Below are positions 3,756 through 12,277 of a DNA stretch of 31,452 nucleotides, piece after piece. Origin of the DNA: a virus (taxonomy: Duplodnaviria; Heunggongvirae; Uroviricota; Caudoviricetes). Position 1 is the stretch's first letter; every line of letters starts with the position of its first letter. A program made the position numbers and the translations under genes. The notes under the pieces are model-generated. The model ran no database searches, was not told the origin of the DNA, and worked only from the letters and a program-made list of their open reading frames with translations. The DNA lies in IMG/VR virus record IMGVR_UViG_2713896902_000003, positions 1 through 31,452 of that record; one strand, written 5' to 3'.

Positions 3756-3832
3756 TGATAAACCTCATAACCATTTTCAGGGTGAACAAATCCCTGCCAT
3801 TGCTGGCATATAAAAATAAAACCGGATATTAA

Positions 3833-4036
3833 TTACGGCGCTGTTTTAAGTCCTGCCGGGACTTCGTTATTATCCATGCGAATAACTTTATCGACCGGAT
3901 AGCAGTTGCCGGGAATTTTTTGCTCTGCTGCGGCAGCCATGCATTCTTTCATTGAGCCGTAAATGTCAATAACCAGGTCAACAGGTTCGCCGGTATTAAG
4001 AAAAACTGTCAGAACGAGTGCAAATGCTGCATTCAT
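3833..4036 (-). CDS. Small hypothetical protein, 67 aa, hydrophobic N-terminus (possibly DUF1482-like)
   Basis: ORF from track; start overlaps the stop of the upstream gene by 4 nt (translational coupling); hydrophobic N-terminal stretch AFALVLTVFL. Family name is a guess. Confidence 0.5.
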   Translation of the reverse strand: MNAAFALVLTVFLNTGEPVDLVIDIYGSMKECMAAAAEQKIPGNCYPVDKVIRMDNNEVPAGLKTAP

Positions 4037-4221
4037 TGCCAGTATCCTTTTTGCATCAGACGTAAACGGGCCATCATTGAGGCAATGCGTATCTCATTTA
4101 ATGATTCAGGCCTGTGCTTTATCTGGTTAATGGCATCCTCAATAAAAGTTTTATCACCAGTGATAACGCCAATTTCAAAACGAGTTTCAGGCGTAGTGGA
4201 ATTGAGTAATAACATTTCCAT
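4033..4221 (-). CDS. Kil-like host cell-division inhibitor candidate, 62 aa
   Basis: Small ORF in the leftward early operon at the position of kil/kilR; segment FEIGVITGDKTFIEDAINQIK resembles the lambda Kil motif as I recall it. Low confidence, memory-based. Confidence 0.35.
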   Translation of the reverse strand: MEMLLLNSTTPETRFEIGVITGDKTFIEDAINQIKHRPESLNEIRIASMMARLRLMQKGYWQ

Positions 4222-4237
4222 TATCGCGTCCTCAACA

Positions 4238-4380
4238 GTGAATTTTGTGATGTGGTGCCTTCAGGTGACGTTAACCAGTTAACAATTAACGCCGGATACA
4301 GAGAATCCACCCGTAACACTGTTTTTAGCTTTAACTGTTCCGCGTGTGCTGAGCCGCATTCACCGCATCACAAAATTCAC
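4238..4380. repeat. 20-bp inverted repeat pair (GTGAATTTTGTGATGTGGTG at 4238-4257; CACCGCATCACAAAATTCAC at 4361-4380) flanking a 103-bp spacer
   Basis: Read directly: the arms are reverse complements with one mismatch; located immediately upstream (in the transcription direction) of the kil-like start codon. Confidence 0.7.
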
Positions 4381-4788
4381 TTTAAAAAGGGCGGACATCA
4401 GCCGGACTTCAAGAAAAAACTGATGCCGCCAAAGGCTCCGTCGTTAACACCCGACATGGATATGTTGTGGCGGGGTTGTCACTTAAGCGTATGGTCAGCC
4501 TGACAACCCGGTGTCCTCAACGGGGAAGGAGTAGCCCCGCCATACTTACCGCCGCGCCATTTCGCGGATTACCACAACCGGAAGCGCACGGTCGACGAAA
4601 ATTTAACGACAGACCATTTATGAACTAACAGCCTCGTCGTGCGCTTTCGCGTTATGCCCTGACTTTTCAGGGAAAATTAACCAGTGGTAAACTGGTGCTG
4701 CCGGATGCTCACCCGTGTCCGGCGCATGCCCTCCACCTCCCCCGTGGAGAAATCCTTAATTACCAACCTTAGCTTCGTTGGTTAGCTA

Positions 4789-5007
4789 TTAACGCGGGTA
4801 TGTAATCATTCTGGCGATACTTAATGCCACTGCTTTTTCCAGATTGGTAATATCTTTTTCCAGAGCAGACAGATTTTCGGCCTGCTTAGCCCTGGCTTCA
4901 TTGGCCCATTTTAGGTCTTGCGCTGCCTTAATTTTCTGGCACATCCACTCATAAAGTTCATCATCGGTATAGTCTGGCGCGATGATGACGGGTTCTGGTT
5001 TTTGCAT
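4789..5007 (-). CDS. Hypothetical protein, 72 aa; first gene of the leftward early (PL-like) operon
   Basis: ORF from track, about 190 nt downstream of the OL-like operators; no arginine-rich N-like motif, so not called an N antiterminator. Confidence 0.5.
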   Translation of the reverse strand: MQKPEPVIIAPDYTDDELYEWMCQKIKAAQDLKWANEARAKQAENLSALEKDITNLEKAVALSIARMITYPR

Positions 5008-5194
5008 ACTGATTCCTCGCAGTGCTGTTTCCCCTTAACGCCGGGGTGGCGGAACAAAAACCTGCTGCATAGTTAAAGTTGAACCCCGCCGTCATGTTCA
5101 TATGCCTCGGGCTGGCTACTTAACCCCTGACCACTGCTTGGTAACTCGAAGTATTGCCCGGCGTTCTGTGGGGCGGGGTGGGTTGGTATGAAAT

Positions 5195-5245
5195 AAAGAA
5201 TACCCACGGGTATCTAAAAAGTAAATACCCATGGGTAACTTTTTG
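5195..5245 (-). promoter_or_regulatory. OL-like operator pair (TACCCACGGGTA 5201-5212; TACCCATGGGTA 5226-5237) overlapping a candidate leftward PL promoter
   Basis: Two 12-bp palindromes of form TACCC-N2-GGGTA, 25 bp centre to centre, just downstream of the repressor gene 3' end; on the reverse strand TTACCC and TAGATA hexamers with a 16-nt spacer overlap them. Confidence 0.55.
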
Positions 5246-5799: not shown

Positions 5800-6081
5800 A
5801 TGGAAGAATTAAGAATGTTTCTCAATTCTCTTTCGTCAGATGAACAGCGTATGTTTGCATGTGAGTGTAGTACTAGCATCGGTTATCTAAGAAAGGCATT
5901 GAGTAAAGGTCAAGTGTTAGGGGCATCGTTATGTGTCCTTATTGAGCGAGCCAGTAATGGTGAAGTTACACGTCAGCAACTAAGGCCTTTTGATTGGATG
6001 AATATTTGGCCCGAGCTGGAAGACACCAAAACGTTAACACAACCACTTTCTAGGAGCTTGATTCATGAAAATCAAGCATGA
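5800..6081 (+). CDS. Cro/YdaS-like HTH transcriptional regulator, 93 aa
   Basis: Small ORF divergent from the repressor; RBS GGAG upstream; HTH-like segment FACECSTSIGYLRKALSKGQ; followed by a YdaT-like gene as in Rac-type prophages. Confidence 0.6.
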   Translation: MEELRMFLNSLSSDEQRMFACECSTSIGYLRKALSKGQVLGASLCVLIERASNGEVTRQQLRPFDWMNIWPELEDTKTLTQPLSRSLIHENQA

Positions 6082-6490
6082 GCACATCCGCATGGCGATG
6101 AATGCCTGGGCGCGTCCTGATGGCGAAAAAGTTCCGGCAGCTGGAATAACCCGGGCTTATTTTGAGTTGGGTATGACGTTTCCTGAACTGTATGACGACA
6201 GCCATCCGGAAGCCCTGGCTCGCAATACCCAGAAAATTTTCCGCTGGGTAGAGAAAGACACCCCTGATGCTGTTGAAAAAATTCAGGCGCTGTTACCAGC
6301 GATCGAAAAGGCAATGCCACCTCTGCTGGTGGCCCGAATGCGCAGCCACAGTTCAGCCTGGTTTCGGGAGCTGGTAGAGACGCGGGAACGACTGGTGAGA
6401 GACGCTGATGATTTTGTCGCAGTGGCGATCGCAGGTTTCAACCAGATGAATCGTGGTGGCCCGGCAGGAAATGCCGTGGCGGTACATTGA
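6065..6490 (+). CDS. YdaT-like protein, 141 aa
   Basis: Overlaps the upstream cro-like gene; N-terminus MKIKHEHI matches my recollection of E. coli Rac YdaT; the YdaS-YdaT pairing is consistent. Confidence 0.55.
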   Translation: MKIKHEHIRMAMNAWARPDGEKVPAAGITRAYFELGMTFPELYDDSHPEALARNTQKIFRWVEKDTPDAVEKIQALLPAIEKAMPPLLVARMRSHSSAWFRELVETRERLVRDADDFVAVAIAGFNQMNRGGPAGNAVAVH

Positions 6491-6561
6491 CTGACAATAT
6501 TCATACCGGATCGCTTCCGGCAACTCGTGAGTAAAAAGATTCGGTATCAGAAGAGGTGAGT

Positions 6562-7653
6562 ATGGCTAACGCCTGGCTCAGATTATGGCATGACATGCCA
6601 AATGACCCTAAGTGGCGAACAATTTCAAGGGTGTCAGGACAGCCAATCGCAACGGTGATGGCGGTGTATATCCACCTTCTGGTTAGCGCGTCACGAAATG
6701 TCACGACATGTCACGGTGTGTCACTACGTGGTCACATTGATGTCACGACGGAAGATTTAGCAAGTGCACTTGATGTAACGGAAGAGGTAATTGATTCAAT
6801 TTTGCAGGCAATGCAGGGGCGGGTGCTTGATGGAGATTTAATCACTGGATGGGAAAAACGCCAAGTACTGAAAGAGGACAACGGCAATATTTCGCAAACC
6901 GCAAAATCTCCGGCAGAGCGCAAGAGGGCGCAGAGAGAGAGGGAAAGAAAGCGGGAACAAAATGGCGATTGTCACGGAGCGTCACGAAATGTCACGCACA
7001 TGTCACGACGAGTCACGACAGATAAAGATACAGATAAAGATACAGATCAAGAAGATCAAAACACTATGGTCCATGGCGTAAAAAACGCCACGAACCAGGC
7101 AGGGGATGTTCAGACCGTCAATCCTGGTCAGCCAGCAGGCACGACACCGGAAGCCGATTCAGCGTATGCGCTGAAAGCCGATTCGGGCGCTGTGCAGCAT
7201 GCGATGACCGCAAGGCCGGAACAATCACACCAACTGCAGCAACCTGAAGCCGATTCCGCCATTCAGCGGGAAGCCGATCGGGTAGTCCCGGAAAACACCG
7301 GGCAGCCTGTGGGACGAGTGGATTATCCGGATGTGTTCGAACAGGTCTGGCTGGAATACCCGTTGCGTGCCGGGGCAAACCCGAAGAAATCCGCTTTCAG
7401 TGCCTGGAAGGCCAGATTACGCGAGGGGGTGCCACCAGAGGTCATGCTGGATGGAGTGAGGCGTTACGCAAGATACCTGGCGGCTACCGGGAAAACAGGA
7501 ACGGAGTTTGTTCAGCGAGCGACGACGTTTTTCGGCCCTGACCGGAATTTTGAAAACCCCTGGTTGCTCCCGGTAAGCGGCACGAACAACCAGCGTTGTG
7601 TGAATCATATTTCTGAACCGGACACTGAAATCCCGCCGGGATTCAGGGGGTGA
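6562..7653 (+). CDS. Replication initiation protein candidate (YdaU/DUF1376-like N-terminus), about 363 aa, with origin-like iterons inside the gene
   Basis: Track ORF 6556..7653; ATG at 6562 preferred (RBS AGAGGTGAG upstream). N-terminal WLRLWHDMPNDPKW motif is typical of DUF1376 replication-associated phage proteins as recalled; lies where lambda O lies; contains iteron clusters. Confidence 0.6.
   Translation: MANAWLRLWHDMPNDPKWRTISRVSGQPIATVMAVYIHLLVSASRNVTTCHGVSLRGHIDVTTEDLASALDVTEEVIDSILQAMQGRVLDGDLITGWEKRQVLKEDNGNISQTAKSPAERKRAQRERERKREQNGDCHGASRNVTHMSRRVTTDKDTDKDTDQEDQNTMVHGVKNATNQAGDVQTVNPGQPAGTTPEADSAYALKADSGAVQHAMTARPEQSHQLQQPEADSAIQREADRVVPENTGQPVGRVDYPDVFEQVWLEYPLRAGANPKKSAFSAWKARLREGVPPEVMLDGVRRYARYLAATGKTGTEFVQRATTFFGPDRNFENPWLLPVSGTNNQRCVNHISEPDTEIPPGFRG
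6690..6750 (+). repeat. Iteron cluster 1: six GTCAC(G/T)-containing direct repeats at 10-11 bp spacing
   Basis: Read directly: gtcacgaaatgtcacgacatgtcacggtgtgtcactacgtggtcacattgatgtcacgacg, inside the replication gene. Confidence 0.7.
6971..7044 (+). repeat. Iteron cluster 2 (five GTCACG repeats at 10-bp spacing, 6971-7017) followed by AT-rich tandem repeat gataaagataca x2 (7021-7044)
   Basis: Read directly: gtcacggagcgtcacgaaatgtcacgcacatgtcacgacgagtcacgaca then gataaagatacagataaagataca; the arrangement resembles lambda ori (iterons plus AT-rich region inside gene O). Confidence 0.65.
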
Positions 7654-7674
7654 GAATTGCTTCTGTGGAGTCTG

Positions 7675-7788
7675 ATGGAGGATTTATGGCGAGAATTTTT
7701 ATGTCAGAGGTTCGCAGAGGAACTGAAGAATCGTATTGTTGAGCTTGTGCGTAAAAATGAGTGTATACCAATTTTTCAATTGGTATGA
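7675..7788 (+). CDS. Possible small ORF, 37 aa (MEDLWREFLCQRFAEELKNRIVELVRKNECIPIFQLV)
   Basis: Below the track's 60-aa cutoff; ATG 7675 is 4 nt after GGAG and 22 nt after the replication-gene stop; translation reads like an amphipathic helix. Speculative. Confidence 0.2.
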   Translation: MEDLWREFLCQRFAEELKNRIVELVRKNECIPIFQLV

Positions 7789-7914
7789 CGCAACATGCAG
7801 CAGGCGTATAAAGTTATGCAAAGAGAGAACAGACGGTGCAGTTAATTATCAGGAGTTGTGTAATTGTAGCAAAAAGTAAAAGATATTGTGGATTCTGGAA
7901 ATGAGGGAGGGGCG

Positions 7915-8115
7915 ATGTGCGAAATTGTGGTGTTAATTAAAATAGCGTTAACGATTGGTTGTATTGCTGCTGTTGTCTTTGGATTGATTGCATGTGTCAC
8001 TAGAAAAAATCCTTTATGTTTCATTAATTCATTGTCTGTAATGAAGTTTTTGGTGGCACTAATAGCCTACATATGGTTTCTTTGTTTTCTTTTACCACCA
8101 TGGGAGTGTTCATGA
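7915..8115 (+). CDS. Small membrane protein, 66 aa, two predicted transmembrane helices
   Basis: Track ORF 7888..8115; ATG at 7915 preferred because of the strong RBS GAGGGAGGGG 3 nt upstream; two hydrophobic stretches (IVVLIKIALTIGCIAAVVFGLIA and FLVALIAYIWFLCFLL); in an AT-rich moron. Confidence 0.5.
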   Translation: MCEIVVLIKIALTIGCIAAVVFGLIACVTRKNPLCFINSLSVMKFLVALIAYIWFLCFLLPPWECS

Positions 8116-8198
8116 TAAGGGGCATTAGTTATCAGATATTGCATAAGGGACTGTTGCTGAAGAGCTTGTGAGCTTTCCTTAATATTGCCGGTATTTTG

Positions 8199-8204
8199 TA
8201 TAAT
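8199..8204 (+). promoter_or_regulatory. Candidate -10 element (TATAAT preceded by TG) for the 164-aa moron gene
   Basis: tttgTATAATaatg read directly, about 38 nt upstream of ATG 8242; no convincing -35 identified. Confidence 0.35.
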
Positions 8205-8241
8205 AATGAAATGGGTCTGTGGGGTGGAAGGATGAAAGTTA

Positions 8242-8736
8242 ATGAGCGCTTTTACCAAAGAGCAACTAATCGAGTACGCAAGGGCTTACATTGAGCATGA
8301 TACATTGTTGAAAACGAGGTTTGGTAAAAGTTACAAGACGTCTGCATATATAGAATTGGTTCGTATTGCGTTGATTTCGCTTGAAACAGGGACGCCTTAT
8401 ATGAATCAATTTACCAGAAAAACATTTACGCTGGATGCGCAACCAGATGCTGATAGAGAGTCTGATGCACATGAACCTTCTTATGCATTTCAATTGCCAT
8501 CAGTAGCTCCGGAGATGGCTGAAGATGCTATTAAATGTATTCGCAGCATCGCTCCCCACCTTAATGAAGGTACTCCCTCTTCGACATCTGACAGGCAGGT
8601 CCACGAGCTAGCTATATGGGTTAAGCGTCTAGCCTATTCCTTAAAAGGTGTCAATAAATCAAGCAAGTTACCAGATAAGGCGATGGACTATCTGGAGGTT
8701 AACGGGATGATAAATAAGGAGAATATCTTGCGGTGA
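8242..8736 (+). CDS. Hypothetical protein, 164 aa (moron cargo, function unknown)
   Basis: Clean ORF in a visibly AT-rich segment between the replication and DUF968 genes; own promoter-like -10; no recognizable motif. Confidence 0.6.
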   Translation: MSAFTKEQLIEYARAYIEHDTLLKTRFGKSYKTSAYIELVRIALISLETGTPYMNQFTRKTFTLDAQPDADRESDAHEPSYAFQLPSVAPEMAEDAIKCIRSIAPHLNEGTPSSTSDRQVHELAIWVKRLAYSLKGVNKSSKLPDKAMDYLEVNGMINKENILR

Positions 8737-9315
8737 GTAAAATTTATGCAATTGAGTAATCGTGTTTTTCTGAGTACTCATGTCGGGGTTTACTGTCAAG
8801 AATAAAAACAATTTGCAGGCAAAAGAAACTTGAGTAAAATTGATACAGGATGCCTGAGGTTGTCAGCCCGGGCATAAACGTCAAGAGGCAGACAGAGAAA
8901 AACTTCGTTGTATTTGCGACCAGTCAATCGAAGTTTGCTCATGCCAGACATATTTACTCTGAGCTCCTTCCATACTGAACGGCAGGGAAAGTGCAGATTA
9001 TGAAGTGTAAACAGTGTTAATACTCTGAGTGTCATTTGTATCGCGGTCACTGTGACAGAATCAGGGAAATCTCTGTCAAGCACGAACCAGAATCGGTCCG
9101 TCGGGAATTGCTTCATGGTTTGCGAATCTGAGTGAGGAGTAAGAAAAGTCGGTGGGGGTATGCTTCTCCACCTCTTTTTTTCTGGTGCATCTGGCATCCT
9201 CTGGGCATCCACACTTAATTTTCTTAAGTAGATTTTGTATTTTCTACGCATTTTGGTTTACAATTTGCGCGCCAACCTGAACAATTGGTACCTGCTGCGT
9301 CAATAGAGAAAATAA

Positions 9316-9594
9316 ATGACGCACAATACTAAACCTCGCAATTCTGATAATATCGCCGTCTTTGCCAACAGGCACGGGCGGCATTCACATGCATTCAAAT
9401 CTGACTGGTTCCAGCATGACCCATGCACTGAGGAACAGGCCGAATGGCTGATTCAGAATTACCGCAGACGTGGGTACGAGTTTCAGAAAGACCTCAGTCT
9501 TGATTTCCGACACTGGATAATTTCCGTCAGGCTTCCTTATTCCGAACGCCCACCGCGTCCGTCCCGCACATTCCAGCAACGGATCTGGAGGTAA
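9316..9594 (+). CDS. Hypothetical protein, 92 aa
   Basis: ORF from track; stop TAA is 1 nt before the GTG start of the downstream DUF968-like gene, which has its RBS GGAGG inside this ORF (translational coupling). Confidence 0.5.
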   Translation: MTHNTKPRNSDNIAVFANRHGRHSHAFKSDWFQHDPCTEEQAEWLIQNYRRRGYEFQKDLSLDFRHWIISVRLPYSERPPRPSRTFQQRIWR

Positions 9595-9595
9595 C

Positions 9596-10654
9596 GTGCG
9601 GGTATTACTTAGACCTGTTCTGGTACCGGAACTTGGGCTGGTGGTCCTTAAGCCAGGCCGTGAATCCATGCAGGTATTTCATAATGCCCGGGTGCTGGTG
9701 GAGCCGGAACCGAAAAGCATGCGCGGCCTGCCGTCCGGAGTCGTCCCCGCTGTTCGTCAGCCGCTGGTGGAAGATAAATCATTATTGCCATTTTTCAGCG
9801 ATGAGCGGGTTATTCGTGCTGCTGGTGGCGCTGGCGCATTGTCTGACTGGCTCCTGCGTCATGTTAAATCCTGCCAGTGGCCTCATGGTGATTACCATCA
9901 CAGCGAAACCGTCATACATCGTTATGGTACCGGCGCCATGGTGTTGTGCTGGCACTGCGACAACCAGCTGCGTGACCAGACCTCCGAATCACTTGAGCAA
10001 CTTGCTCGTCAAAATCTGGCAGCCTGGATGATTGACGTCATCCGCCACGCAATAAGCGGTACACAGGAACGGGAATTATCGCTGGCTGAATTATCCTGGT
10101 GGGCAGTCCGCAATCAGGTGGCGGACGCACTACCTGAGGCGGTATCGCGTCGTTCGCTGGGATTACCGGTGGAAAAAATCCGTTCAGTATACCGCGAAAG
10201 CGACATCATACCGGGAGAGCAGACAGCCACCAGCATACTGAAGCTGCGCACAAAAAATCTTGCGCGGTTGCCTCACGCCCACCAGCAACAAAAACCACCA
10301 CAGGAAAAGACGGTAGTAAGCATCGCCGTTGATCCGGAGTCTCCGGCTCAGTATCTCCAGCGCCAGAAACCACAACGGGAAGAGATGCCCGTATACACGC
10401 GCTGGGTAAAAACACAGAAATGCATGACGTGTGGCAATCAGGCAGATGATCCGCATCACATCATTGGTCATGGACTGGGAGGGATGGGAACAAAGGCTGA
10501 CGATTTGTTTGTTATTCCGCTGTGCCGTAGATGCCATAACGAACTGCACGCCGGGGTAAAAGATTTTGAAGAAAAACACGGCAGCCAGCTGTTGTTGCTG
10601 ATTCGTTTTTTAATGCACGCGAGAAATTCGGGTGTTCTGAAGTGGAAAGCATGA
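9596..10654 (+). CDS. DUF968-like prophage protein with C-terminal HNH-like zinc-binding nuclease motif, 352 aa
   Basis: Size and position (between replication and rusA/Q) match the DUF968/YdfU-type proteins of lambdoid prophages; C-terminus has CMTCGNQADDPHHIIGHGLGG...CRRCHNELH, i.e. paired Cys motifs with conserved His typical of the HNH fold. Confidence 0.65.
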   Translation: MRVLLRPVLVPELGLVVLKPGRESMQVFHNARVLVEPEPKSMRGLPSGVVPAVRQPLVEDKSLLPFFSDERVIRAAGGAGALSDWLLRHVKSCQWPHGDYHHSETVIHRYGTGAMVLCWHCDNQLRDQTSESLEQLARQNLAAWMIDVIRHAISGTQERELSLAELSWWAVRNQVADALPEAVSRRSLGLPVEKIRSVYRESDIIPGEQTATSILKLRTKNLARLPHAHQQQKPPQEKTVVSIAVDPESPAQYLQRQKPQREEMPVYTRWVKTQKCMTCGNQADDPHHIIGHGLGGMGTKADDLFVIPLCRRCHNELHAGVKDFEEKHGSQLLLLIRFLMHARNSGVLKWKA

Positions 10655-11412: not shown

Positions 11413-11442
11413 TTGACCAGACACATTGTCCGGGGCTATATT
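11413..11442 (+). promoter_or_regulatory. Candidate late promoter PR' (TTGACC 11413-11418; TATATT 11437-11442)
   Basis: Near-consensus -35 and -10 hexamers with an 18-nt spacer, 5 nt after the Q stop codon and about 60 nt upstream of an intrinsic terminator. Confidence 0.5.
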
Positions 11443-11504
11443 CCTCACGCGCCAGCAAAATCTGGCGTCGGGATTAGGAACCCCGGATAGAGACCGCGAC
11501 AGAC

Positions 11505-11526
11505 ACACGCCGCGAGCGTGTTTTTT
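11505..11526 (+). terminator. Intrinsic terminator tR' candidate (ACACGC-CGCGA-GCGTGT plus T6)
   Basis: 6-bp GC-rich stem, 5-nt loop, followed by TTTTTTATT; read directly. Confidence 0.6.
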
Positions 11527-11689
11527 ATTGTCGTATGCACGCGCACATCTGAATTATGGTGGGGCGTATGGGGGAGCTGAAAAGCTCGCCGGTTGGTTTC
11601 CCGGTAGTTCCTAACCCTGTACGTCTCACCACCCGATGATTAGGAACCTGACGGTGGTGATGGTTTAGAAACCACCAGAGGGCGTCATT

Positions 11690-12277
11690 ATGACAACTCA
11701 AATTTCTGTTGAAACTCTCTCCCCGATCACCCATAACCAGATTCCTGTTATTACCACCGAACTTTTGGCGCAGTTGTACGGTGCTGAAGTTAAGAACATT
11801 CAAAATAACTACGCCAGAAATGCTGAGCGCTTTATTGAAGGAAAGCATTTTTTCAAAGTGGCTGGCGATGCCCTGAAAAATTTGCGGGTAGCTTTAAACT
11901 ACTCACAAAATTTGCAACCATCTTTAAGAGGGTTACAAATTTCCCCGAAAGCCCGCTCGCTCATACTCTGGACAGAACGCGGCGCAGCCCGCCACGCAAA
12001 AATGCTCGAAACCGATCAGGCGTGGGAAGTATTCGAAAAACTGGAAGACTGTTATTTCAGCCAGAAACAGCCACTAGCAACACAAAACTCACCCACCGAA
12101 AATGATGGATGCGCATTACTGATCCACTTCGATAAACACGGTCAGGTCGACTTTACGGAAAAAGTACCCGCCGATGCGATGGTATGCACTCTGGAACGGT
12201 TCAAATTTTATCTGGAACAACGCGGCTGGATCGTTGCCCGTAAAGAGCAACTGGTGGAACGATTGATGAGGCTTTAA
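11690..12277 (+). CDS. ORF6N-like (phage antirepressor N-terminal DNA-binding domain) protein, 195 aa
   Basis: First ORF downstream of PR'/tR'; RBS AGAGGG; N-terminal region (IPVITTELLAQLYGAEVKNIQNNYARNAERFIEGKHFF...ILWTERGAARHAKML) resembles ORF6N/Bro-N type domains as recalled. Confidence 0.5.
   Translation: MTTQISVETLSPITHNQIPVITTELLAQLYGAEVKNIQNNYARNAERFIEGKHFFKVAGDALKNLRVALNYSQNLQPSLRGLQISPKARSLILWTERGAARHAKMLETDQAWEVFEKLEDCYFSQKQPLATQNSPTENDGCALLIHFDKHGQVDFTEKVPADAMVCTLERFKFYLEQRGWIVARKEQLVERLMRL

Follow-up and report, generated by a model that had tools for sequence, protein, structure and literature searches.

Composition and prophage context of the segment

The DNA analysed here, referred to as the window, comprises 31,452 nucleotides (positions 1 to 31,452 of the IMG/VR virus record IMGVR_UViG_2713896902_000003). 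It shows 100% identity with Escherichia albertii contig BBVM01000006.1, where it corresponds to a Rac/Qin-like prophage adjoining ompW. The segment under study, positions 7654-9315, follows the replisome-organizer gene and carries a short ORF, a gene for a 66-aa membrane protein, a gene for a 164-aa protein and the remains of a hok/sok locus, all on the + strand. The original prediction had described it as an AT-rich moron with ORFs of 37, 66 and 164 aa, a -10-like hexamer at 8197-8204 and a hairpin followed by a T-run, and a check of the sequence and its ORFs found every one of these features in place. The composition was also borne out: 7654-9315 is AT-rich overall, with a GC content of 0.40 over 7654-8736, 0.343 in the 66-aa gene and 0.42 in 8737-9315, compared with 0.53 in the flanks, that is, in the replisome-organizer gene on the left and in the 92-aa and DUF968 genes on the right.

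Homology with E. coli prophages stops at 7654 on the left side and resumes at 9181 on the right side, from where on the identity amounts to 88-89%. E. coli genomes and phages gave no match to 7654-9315 in Megablast, and a search of plasmids for distant matches found nothing. Flanking repeats marking an insertion were sought, and short two-copy matches alone turned up. At gathering thresholds, Rfam gave nothing in 7654-9315; the sole matches of the window, isrK and C4, are located elsewhere.

The gene order of the E. coli relatives is replisome organizer, DUF977, variable genes, hok, a 90-92-aa gene, DUF968, RusA and Q. In its fuller form, a gene of the "MTELTKEQLIE... / ...KLPDKAMDYLKRNGLISVEDVLR" family lies between the variable small genes and hok/sok. 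The window agrees with this order. In E. coli, the contents of the slot are DUF977, then variable genes (QueH, or genes for a Zn-ribbon and a DUF7167 protein), then hokD, and the view that the segment represents variable accessory DNA in the early region of a prophage holds. Promoter-like sites in 7400-9600 occur at chance level (6 found vs. 4.0 +/- 2.2 in shuffled sequences). The first terminator-like site on the + strand was found at 9151, with none between 7654 and 9150.

A short ORF at the left edge

Directly at the end of the left homology arm, a short ORF (7657-7788) encodes 43 aa from a TTG at 7657, or 37 aa from an ATG at 7675. Residues 20-43 of the longer version showed a weak match to Pfam DUF977 (PF06163; profile positions 10-33 of 134, 14.1 bits, E=0.049, cutoff 22.1). 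BLASTP against E. coli DUF977 revealed 7/12 identities ("EELKNRIVELVR" vs. "EKIKRQVVELVR") at the same N-terminal position, and DUF977 is the next gene past the end of the left arm in E. coli prophages. The ORF is probably what remains of the 5' end of a divergent DUF977/LygF-type gene, an assignment that we regard as tentative because the similarity is weak (E=0.049; 7/12), position is the other argument, and phages gave no tblastn match to the 43-aa ORF.

A rare two-helix membrane protein

The 66-aa ORF (7915-8115) is a real but rare gene for a two-helix membrane protein. A good Shine-Dalgarno sequence, GAGGGAGGGG, ends 4 nt upstream of its ATG, and the protein displays hydrophobic segments at about residues 4-28 and 43-60 with a basic loop (TRKNP...MK) between them. 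A word-index search returned the protein itself alone, while HMMER, run exhaustively against 1.84 billion representatives, uncovered one relative, P0122, a 64-aa protein with 39% identity and no gaps over residues 1-59 (E=5.5e-5). Five further relatives with 42-46% identity were detected in IMG/VR contigs (L009-L013), and the family as known has seven members including the protein of the window. A scan of genome contigs for the family gave 46 pattern matches, of which none was confirmed. All six relatives align without gaps and are alike in length, start and the two hydrophobic helices. The dN/dS ratio against them is about 0.17-0.2, at saturated dS.

At L008, the one locus around which gene calls were examined, the gene of the relative lies between DnaB and NinB/RusA, overlapping both neighbours by 4 bp, and so in the same replication-to-nin region of the phage genome as its counterpart in the window. 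Its neighbours (dATP/dGTP pyrophosphohydrolase, DinI, NinB) are different from those in the window, however, and the loci of the relatives have no DNA similarity to it. The phages of the relatives reveal a GC content of about 0.52-0.54, in contrast to 0.34 for the 66-aa gene of the window. No relative of the 164-aa protein, no hok and no DUF968 were found in the flanks at the six loci.

In Pfam, the 66-aa and 164-aa proteins gave sub-threshold noise alone (CHAD, T2SSM_b), and NCBIfam and PADLOC gave no match, in line with the original statement that neither can be assigned to a known family. The sole PHROG match of the 66-aa protein is phrog_1521 (function unknown; E about 0.004-0.02). It is conceivable that this protein alone is the cargo of the segment, as a superinfection-exclusion (Sie) factor, a host-membrane modulator or a toxin such as lambdoid phages have among their accessory genes, with the 164-aa gene and the hok remnant as unrelated neighbours. 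Protein-level conservation under purifying selection would suit such a role, and so would the occurrence of relatives in several phage contigs whose flanking DNA is unrelated and the predicted two-helix hairpin with its basic loop. The dissimilarity to characterised families in the databases searched and the small size of the family argue in the other direction, and on balance we consider this reading possible, though unlikely.

The 164-aa protein belongs to a large mosaic family

The 164-aa gene (8242-8736) encodes a protein consisting of three parts. An N-terminal module (MSAFTKEQLIEYAR...LISLE) is followed by a middle that is unique, and the C-terminal module (about residues 115-164) is conserved. 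It matches phrog_660 in two stretches (E=5.8e-21) and phrog_924 over residues 115-164 (E=8.1e-13), both families of unknown function. A profile search revealed at least 2,770 related clusters of prophage proteins of Escherichia, Shigella and Salmonella, while exact copies of the protein occur in E. albertii only. Members of the phrog_660/phrog_924 family include P0003 and P0004 of E. coli, gp45 of phage N15, Sb32 of Salmonella ST64B and some DUF551 proteins. With these the 164-aa protein has in common the N-terminal module M-x-x-[LF]-TKEQLIE...AL-x-SLE, the C-terminal module QV-x-EL-x-x-WVKRL...KLP-x-KAMDYL...I...E-x-x-LR and a gene position directly upstream of hok. It is set apart by its middle (residues 60-115) and by an identity of just 31-37% to full-length relatives. 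The start codon agrees with the N-terminus of the family. Shuffled modules are visible in the alignments, and 18 of the 20 invariant columns in an alignment of nine sequences fall in the C-terminal module.

The DNA of this module (8596-8736) is the sole part of 7654-8800 that has matches in E. coli DNA. Of 5,426 E. coli genomes, 489 contain a blastn match to the patch (71-79% identity). The matches fall at the 3' ends of genes that are annotated as hypothetical or DUF551 domain-containing, and the patch is 78% identical to the P0003 gene at L014 and L017. The genes of the closest relatives, P0003 and P0004, are directly followed by a HOK_GEF gene in all eight loci shown, and in phage vB_EcoS-673R7 a homolog directly follows the DUF977-type gene LygF. 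The 164-aa gene is a mosaic, divergent allele of the pre-hok gene of Rac/Qin-type prophages; its description as an inserted moron did not stand, as it occupies the place of the gene normally found just upstream of hok.

The original prediction also gave this gene a -10-like sequence of its own. The hexamer is present (TGTATAAT, 8197-8204, with a perfect TATAAT at 8199-8204), but it is a match to the consensus only, with no good -35 at 16-18 nt, and the number of such sites is within chance. Judged from its sequence, it could drive lysogenic, moron-like expression of the 164-aa gene.

Structure prediction with AF2 from 56 sequences reached a pLDDT of 62.5, with helices at residues 6-49 and 116-163 and low confidence for most of 59-113; the model from 8 sequences was unusable (pLDDT 44.9). 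Foldseek of the 164-aa model against BFVD and PDB found no match at E<1, and an HMM search of all PDB chain sequences gave unrelated weak matches, the best being a helicase loader (E=0.39). Model and fold searches led to no functional assignment for the protein. A solved structure of the Ea22 type was considered as a relative and rejected, since no Ea22 entry was among the PDB profile matches.

Still, the 164-aa protein resembles lambda Ea22 and the Ead_Ea22 family (PF13935), which are likewise small, mostly helical lambdoid early accessory proteins with exchangeable modules. In ST64B Sb32, a PF13935 domain even occurs together with the C-terminal module of the 164-aa protein, though the domain (residues 2-159) lies outside this shared module. 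In the 164-aa protein itself, Pfam found no match to PF13935 even at E<=1, and its gene is located on the nin side, whereas the lambda Ea22 gene belongs to the exo-xis region. Lambda Ea22 favours lysogeny (PMC7093339, PMC10834534).

The two intact genes as a putative defence pair

The 66-aa and 164-aa proteins had been proposed to work together in superinfection exclusion or abortive infection, and a two-component system of this type would be carried as an AT-rich moron and expressed in the lysogen. The low GC content, the small two-helix membrane protein with its good Shine-Dalgarno sequence, the perfect -10 hexamer that precedes the 164-aa gene and the variable cargo that E. coli relatives hold at the same position are all consistent with this idea. 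Yet the two families were never seen together in the loci examined, i.e., six loci with relatives of the 66-aa protein and eight with relatives of the 164-aa protein, or nine with phage vB_EcoS-673R7. A 164-aa relative was present at none of the six (0/6). Among the loci with 164-aa relatives, at least six of the eight from E. coli, and at least seven of nine when the phage is included, have no plausible gene for a small membrane protein between DUF977 and hok; L014 and L016 contain a 64/69-aa ORF farther upstream, 5' of the replisome organizer.

Other results point the same way. By its position, the 164-aa gene is an allele of the pre-hok gene, promoter-like sites occur at chance frequency, and the 4-bp overlaps of the 66-aa relative with both neighbours at L008 fit membership in an operon. 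PADLOC-DB v2, searched at E<=1, contained no family for the 164-aa, 66-aa, 43-aa or 92-aa proteins or for a 151-aa ORF on the reverse strand. The proposed pairing is not supported by these data, and we consider a two-component system very unlikely.

A degenerate hok/sok locus

The 580 bp downstream of the 164-aa gene had been described as non-coding. This is correct in so far as 8737-9315 contains no intact ORF, but the stretch aligns lengthwise with the E. coli hokD/sok locus, and the whole hok locus of the window can be aligned with that of E. coli from end to end. A promoter-like site (TTTGCA, 17-nt spacer, TAAAAT; 8812-8840) aligns just upstream of the 5' end of E. coli hokD mRNA. The following mRNA leader with the mok/sok region (8848-9002) ends at the hok ATG (9000-9002) and matches Rfam sok (RF01794) over its full length (1-157) with 36.1 bits (E=4.8e-6), which is below the gathering score of 59. 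It can be aligned with the hokD leaders of E. coli if two internal deletions (7 and 12 nt) are allowed for, and blastn displayed 74-77% identity over 8802-8901.

The hok pseudogene itself (9000-9142) reveals eight indels in a global alignment with the 156-nt hokD CDS, with about 72% identity over the aligned ungapped columns. Frame 1, starting from the ATG at 9000, encodes MKCKQC and then stops at codon 7. A remnant of the transmembrane part, LSVICIAVTVT, is found in frame 2 (LIVICLTVIVT in HokD), and a C-terminal remnant, NLCQARTRIGPSGIASWFANLSEE followed by a stop codon, in frame 3 (DLCEVRIRTGQTEVAVFTAYEPEE and a stop in HokD), both without a start codon. An intact Hok ORF of about 50 aa, with a transmembrane helix at the N-terminus and a conserved Cys-containing domain at the C-terminus, is absent. 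The sequence of 9000-9142 is identical across three independent assemblies.

Further downstream, a G+C-rich hairpin with a T-run (9151-9181) corresponds to the weak hairpin plus T7 of the original prediction. The hairpin at 9151-9172 has 8 pairs, 5 of them G-C, and is followed by TCTTTTTTTC; the homologous E. coli hairpin is without a T-run, while the window carries an 8-nt T insertion. The 3' region of the hok mRNA (9180-9244, with the fbi core at 9198-9210) was recognised by duplex prediction and alignment and includes the degraded counterpart of the terminator, in which the E. coli stem CCGCTTCGGCGG reads TTTCTTAAGTAG. For the tac-fbi RNA duplex between 8848-8873 and 9180-9210, an energy of -35.8 kcal/mol is predicted, compared with -30.0 in E. 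coli hokD. It includes one compensatory change from G:C to A:T (GGGTGC/GCACCC in E. coli, GGATGC/GCATCC in the window).

In E. coli Qin/Rac-type prophages, hokD (relF)/sok follows a gene from the C-module family and immediately precedes a 90-92-aa gene and DUF968, as in the window. This arrangement, with hokD/HOK_GEF between the two, was found at L004, L005, L014-L017, L019 and L021, and at L018 the 92-aa gene is followed by a Q-type gene in place of DUF968. Promoter, leader, start codon, Hok remnants and tac-fbi pairing are alignable between the two loci. The window differs in its destroyed ORF, the deletions in the leader, a new T-run terminator before fbi and the degradation of the original stem. 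Prophages have been found to be enriched in hok loci (bioRxiv 10.1101/2025.08.07.668861).

On the basis of its sequence, 8812-9244 is a degenerate hokD/sok locus whose toxin ORF is a pseudogene, and it should no longer be able to kill, given a toxin frame that is interrupted by several indels and a premature stop. A locus that is still active, as a divergent toxin-antitoxin system or a regulatory RNA, would account for the fact that a promoter-like site, a leader and tac-fbi pairing with one compensatory change have been kept. It is hard to reconcile with a stop after codon 6, with transmembrane and C-terminal remnants in two other frames lacking start codons, with both deletions in the sok/mok leader, with a T insertion that makes a terminator upstream of fbi and with a sok score far under the Rfam gathering score, and we consider it extremely unlikely. 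Inactivation of chromosomal hok loci is reportedly well documented in E. coli K-12 by the work of Pedersen and Gerdes from 1999.

The hok/sok remnant had been missed in the original prediction; it is the sole element of the segment that belongs to a known class related to killing or defence. On the reverse strand, a 151-aa ORF (8796-9251) displays a weak match to phrog_7511 (function unknown). It runs antisense to the hok remnant and was judged to be spurious as a gene.

Probable mosaic origin of the segment

Positions 7654-9315 probably represent a recombination-shuffled early-right accessory stretch of an E. albertii Rac/Qin-type lambdoid prophage, and not an inserted two-gene module. Compared with the canonical order, DUF977 appears to have been cut to a probable stump of 37-43 aa, and there is one variable gene, for the rare 66-aa membrane protein, followed by a mosaic allele of the usual pre-hok gene. 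The two intact genes are probably transcribed as part of the early-right operon, as suggested by the terminator-free + strand from 7654 to 9150. Homologous recombination may have used conserved patches, namely the C-terminal module and the hok leader, as joints in building the mosaic.

With regard to the proteins, the helical C-terminal module of the 164-aa protein probably binds a common partner, with the variable middle providing specificity, and the 66-aa protein may act singly in the inner membrane. It seems doubtful to us, as a joint proposition, that the 66-aa protein and its six relatives form an undescribed family of small phage membrane proteins with a specific activity, for instance superinfection exclusion by a single gene, the inhibition of some host membrane protein or a part in defence, and that, separately, the tight linkage between genes of the C-module family and hok is functional and not a matter of co-inheritance.

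For annotation, the consequence is that a seemingly empty stretch of 580 bp in an E. albertii prophage is a dead hok/sok locus, and that the supposed moron is an ordinary mosaic accessory segment of Rac/Qin-type prophages and no new two-gene defence system. The segment also illustrates how such regions are rebuilt, with homology kept in short patches (the C-terminal module and the hok leader) and the DNA between them replaced. Two modest leads emerge, a rare family of small membrane proteins without annotation and a very large uncharacterised family of prophage proteins consistently adjoining hok; neither touches a long-standing open question. At its right edge, the segment ends in a promoter-like site (TTTACA, 17-nt spacer, AACAAT) and the 5' UTR of the 92-aa gene (9257-9315), a conserved gene at 9316-9594 that matches phrog_1212 with E=3e-37.

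Genomic context of segment 7654-9315

The window matches contig BBVM01000006.1 of Escherichia albertii GCA_001514725.1 at 100% identity, is also present in two more read-set assemblies, and represents a Rac/Qin-like lambdoid prophage whose integration site adjoins ompW. Its gene order runs from integrase, Exc and exonuclease VIII over DicB to the repressor, a Cro-like gene and YdaT, followed by the replisome organizer (6556-7653, phrog_3729), the segment, a 92-aa gene (phrog_1212), DUF968/HNH, RusA and Q. Typical Rac/Qin features are the DicB (PF05358) and DUF1482 genes at about 3830-4220 (-) and, after the repressor, the Cro-like/YdaS-type and YdaT_toxin-family genes at 5800-6490 (+).

All features listed in the original prediction were found at their coordinates, and the segment is indeed AT-rich, with a GC content of 0.40 in 7654-8736 and 0.42 in 8737-9315, and as low as 0.343 in the 66-aa gene, versus 0.53 in the flanking genes on both the left (replisome organizer) and the right (92-aa and DUF968 genes). 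The flanks matched 4,613 of 5,426 complete E. coli genomes in megablast searches, and in none of them did a match span the middle of the segment; homology with E. coli relatives ends at 7654 and restarts at 9181. As these relatives carry DUF977, variable genes (QueH in one; a Zn-ribbon protein, DUF7167 and others in another) and then hokD in the same interval, the segment falls within a hypervariable slot already known from Rac/Qin-like prophages. We consider it likely a product of modular recombination inside the canonical DUF977-to-hok interval, whose hok/sok element has been inactivated since.

At the DUF977 position sits the predicted short ORF, 37 aa from ATG 7675 to 7788, or 43 aa if read from TTG 7657. 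Its similarity to Pfam DUF977 is weak and N-terminal (E=0.049, profile positions 10-33, motif EELKNRIVELVR aligned with DUF977 EKIKRQVVELVR), and it terminates within the predicted HTH. Weak as this similarity is, the simplest reading of the ORF would be a divergent DUF977 allele reduced to a stump.

A decayed hok/sok locus

The roughly 580 bp originally taken for non-coding DNA do contain a hairpin with a T-run, but they are not empty: they are a decayed hok/sok locus. A three-way alignment with two E. coli prophages shows 8780-9320 to be collinear with their hokD regions, beginning at the hok promoter and reaching up to where the 92-aa gene starts. Positions 8848-9002 match the Rfam sok model RF01794 over its full length (36.1 bits, E=4.8e-6, under the gathering score of 59), and this match stops exactly on the ATG at 9000-9002. 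A promoter-like TTTGCA-17-TAAAAT at 8812-8840 occupies the position of the hokD promoter. Pairing of 8848-8873 with 9180-9210, predicted at -35.8 kcal/mol (-30.0 kcal/mol for the E. coli locus), matches the tac-fbi interaction, the long-range contact of 5' and 3' elements characteristic of hok mRNAs; one of its base pairs is altered on both sides versus E. coli, from G:C to A:T.

Judged from its sequence, the hok toxin gene is dead. Eight indels are required to align 9000-9145 with the 156-nt hokD CDS; frame 1 reads MKCKQC and then a stop, the transmembrane remnant LSVICIAVTVT lies in frame 2, and the C-terminal remnant NLCQARTRIGPSGIASWFANLSEE* lies in frame 3 (HokD equivalent, DLCEVRIRTGQTEVAVFTAYEPEE*). 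Decay is also seen in the leader, with deletions of 7 nt and 12 nt versus E. coli, and in the original terminator stem, which is degraded. An 8-nt T insertion has turned a conserved hairpin (9151-9172, T-run directly 3') into the "hairpin plus T7" of the original prediction, so that a terminator now precedes fbi. Three independent assemblies agree on the sequence, making an assembly error unlikely. Given a promoter-like site and the predicted pairing on one side and a broken reading frame on the other, we regard a still active hok locus as highly improbable. E. coli K-12 is well known for decayed hok copies on its chromosome. According to the homology arm and promoter scan, the final 60-70 bp ahead of 9316 are conserved and comprise the promoter-like site and 5' UTR of the 92-aa gene. 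Prophages are enriched in hok loci (bioRxiv 10.1101/2025.08.07.668861).

Three minor features accompany the locus. A 17-nt direct repeat (+), which may have arisen as a recombination joint or by duplication of a promoter fragment, has one copy (8734-8750, TGAGTAAAATTTATGCA) overlapping the 164-aa stop codon and the other (8831-8847, TGAGTAAAATTGATACA) forming the -10/+1 region of the hok promoter. A 151-aa ORF antisense to the hok remnant (8796-9251, (-); weak match to phrog_7511, function unassigned, E=2.5e-4) is probably spurious, like other ORFs called on the strand opposite hok loci. Positions 9181-9312 (+), the hok 3' UTR plus the region upstream of the 92-aa gene, match DNA of E. coli phages (Evi, vB_EcoS-640R1 and others; 75-82% identity) labelled "mobile element protein", probably wrongly.

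The 164-aa protein

The 164-aa ORF (8242-8736) matches phrog_660 (E=5.8e-21) and phrog_924 (E=8e-13), both without assigned function, and had no match in Pfam, NCBIfam or PADLOC. The exact protein was found in E. albertii only, and a profile built from the eight first matches retrieved at least 2,770 clusters of hypothetical prophage proteins of 100-320 aa from Escherichia, Shigella and Salmonella. Alignments reveal a three-part mosaic of an N-terminal module (MTELTKEQLIEE...ALASLEAEP), an interchangeable middle and a strongly conserved C-terminal module (QVxELTMWVKRL...KLPDKAMDYLKRNGLISVEDVLR), which also terminates proteins otherwise bearing PF13935 (Ead_Ea22; e.g. ST64B Sb32) or DUF551. Membership of the 164-aa protein itself in Ead/Ea22 was rejected, as a PF13935 match is absent. 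At the DNA level, only the C-terminal module (8596-8736) matches E. coli, in 489 genomes at 71-79% identity; the rest of the gene had no E. coli matches. The predicted structure (pLDDT 62.5) comprises a helical hairpin (6-49) and helices at 116-163, most of residues 59-113 being of low confidence; fold and PDB sequence searches found no neighbour.

In all eight E. coli prophage loci shown, the closest relatives (4001-4483 or 4001-4564 in locus coordinates) have a HOK_GEF gene as their immediate downstream neighbour. One of these loci (L020) differs in its replication and nin modules and keeps the hok adjacency, which suggests that hok and the C-module gene move together as one linked cassette. 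In phage vB_EcoS-673R7, a homolog directly follows the DUF977-type gene LygF. From these positions, the 164-aa gene is the local allele, now diverged, of a gene that is standard at this position, and not an inserted moron as had been proposed. Its own -10-like site is present (TGTATAAT, 8197-8204, with a perfect TATAAT at 8199-8204), but a convincing -35 is absent, and the region holds 6 promoter-like sites versus 4.0 +/- 2.2 in shuffles, so that this promoter is a consensus match only.

The 66-aa membrane protein

The 66-aa ORF (7915-8115) has the predicted RBS, GAGGGAGGGG ending 4 nt upstream of the ATG, and hydropathy agrees with a two-helix membrane protein, predicting two transmembrane segments joined by a basic loop. 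A word-index search gave the self-match only; exhaustive HMMER searching of 1.84 billion representatives gave one relative (64 aa, 39% identity, gapless from residue 1, E=5.5e-5), and an IMG/VR pattern scan five more (42-46% identity). A dN/dS of about 0.17-0.2 against the relatives, with dS saturated, identifies the ORF as a real gene. At one locus (L008), the relative lies between DnaB and NinB/RusA with a 4-bp overlap with each neighbour, which fits early-operon membership; L009 has a similar ORF layout. No function emerged from Pfam, PHROG, NCBIfam or PADLOC.

A membrane protein beside a soluble partner had been read as paired superinfection-exclusion or abortive-infection cargo. The six loci with 66-aa relatives contain no relative of the 164-aa protein, Hok or DUF968; since the two families never co-occur in the loci examined, this pairing is unsupported and we hold it to be improbable, and the PADLOC run proposed earlier matched neither protein. 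A stand-alone role of the small membrane protein, compatible with the recombination reading, is a tentative possibility. Under that preferred reading, recombination would have built the segment, hok/sok would have been inactivated afterwards, and the 66-aa and 164-aa genes would be unrelated neighbours, both probably transcribed with the early-right operon, as no + strand terminator-like site occurs before 9151. All components are of known kinds: the accessory region is a prophage mosaic, the hok/sok copy is a pseudogene, and the 164-aa protein belongs to a huge family of uncharacterised prophage proteins. Only two items are mildly new, namely the small membrane protein family, which is rare, and the consistent position of C-module genes next to hok.

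For the gene that follows in the IMG/VR relatives, the longest ORF runs upstream in another frame over the entire 64-aa ORF (in L009, 4973-5674 versus 5001-5195), so gene callers may miss the small gene in such phages; in L008, the downstream gene is called dATP/dGTP pyrophosphohydrolase.

Elsewhere in the window, 11436-11636 (+), just 3' of the Q-like gene, gave Rfam gathering-level matches to isrK (69 bits) and C4 antisense RNA (67 bits), and also to the a1/b1 target of C4 (48 bits). With the ORF6N-domain gene that comes next (11690-12277), this layout is reminiscent of the regulatory RNA module of isrK/anti-Q type known from Gifsy-like and P1/P7-like elements.
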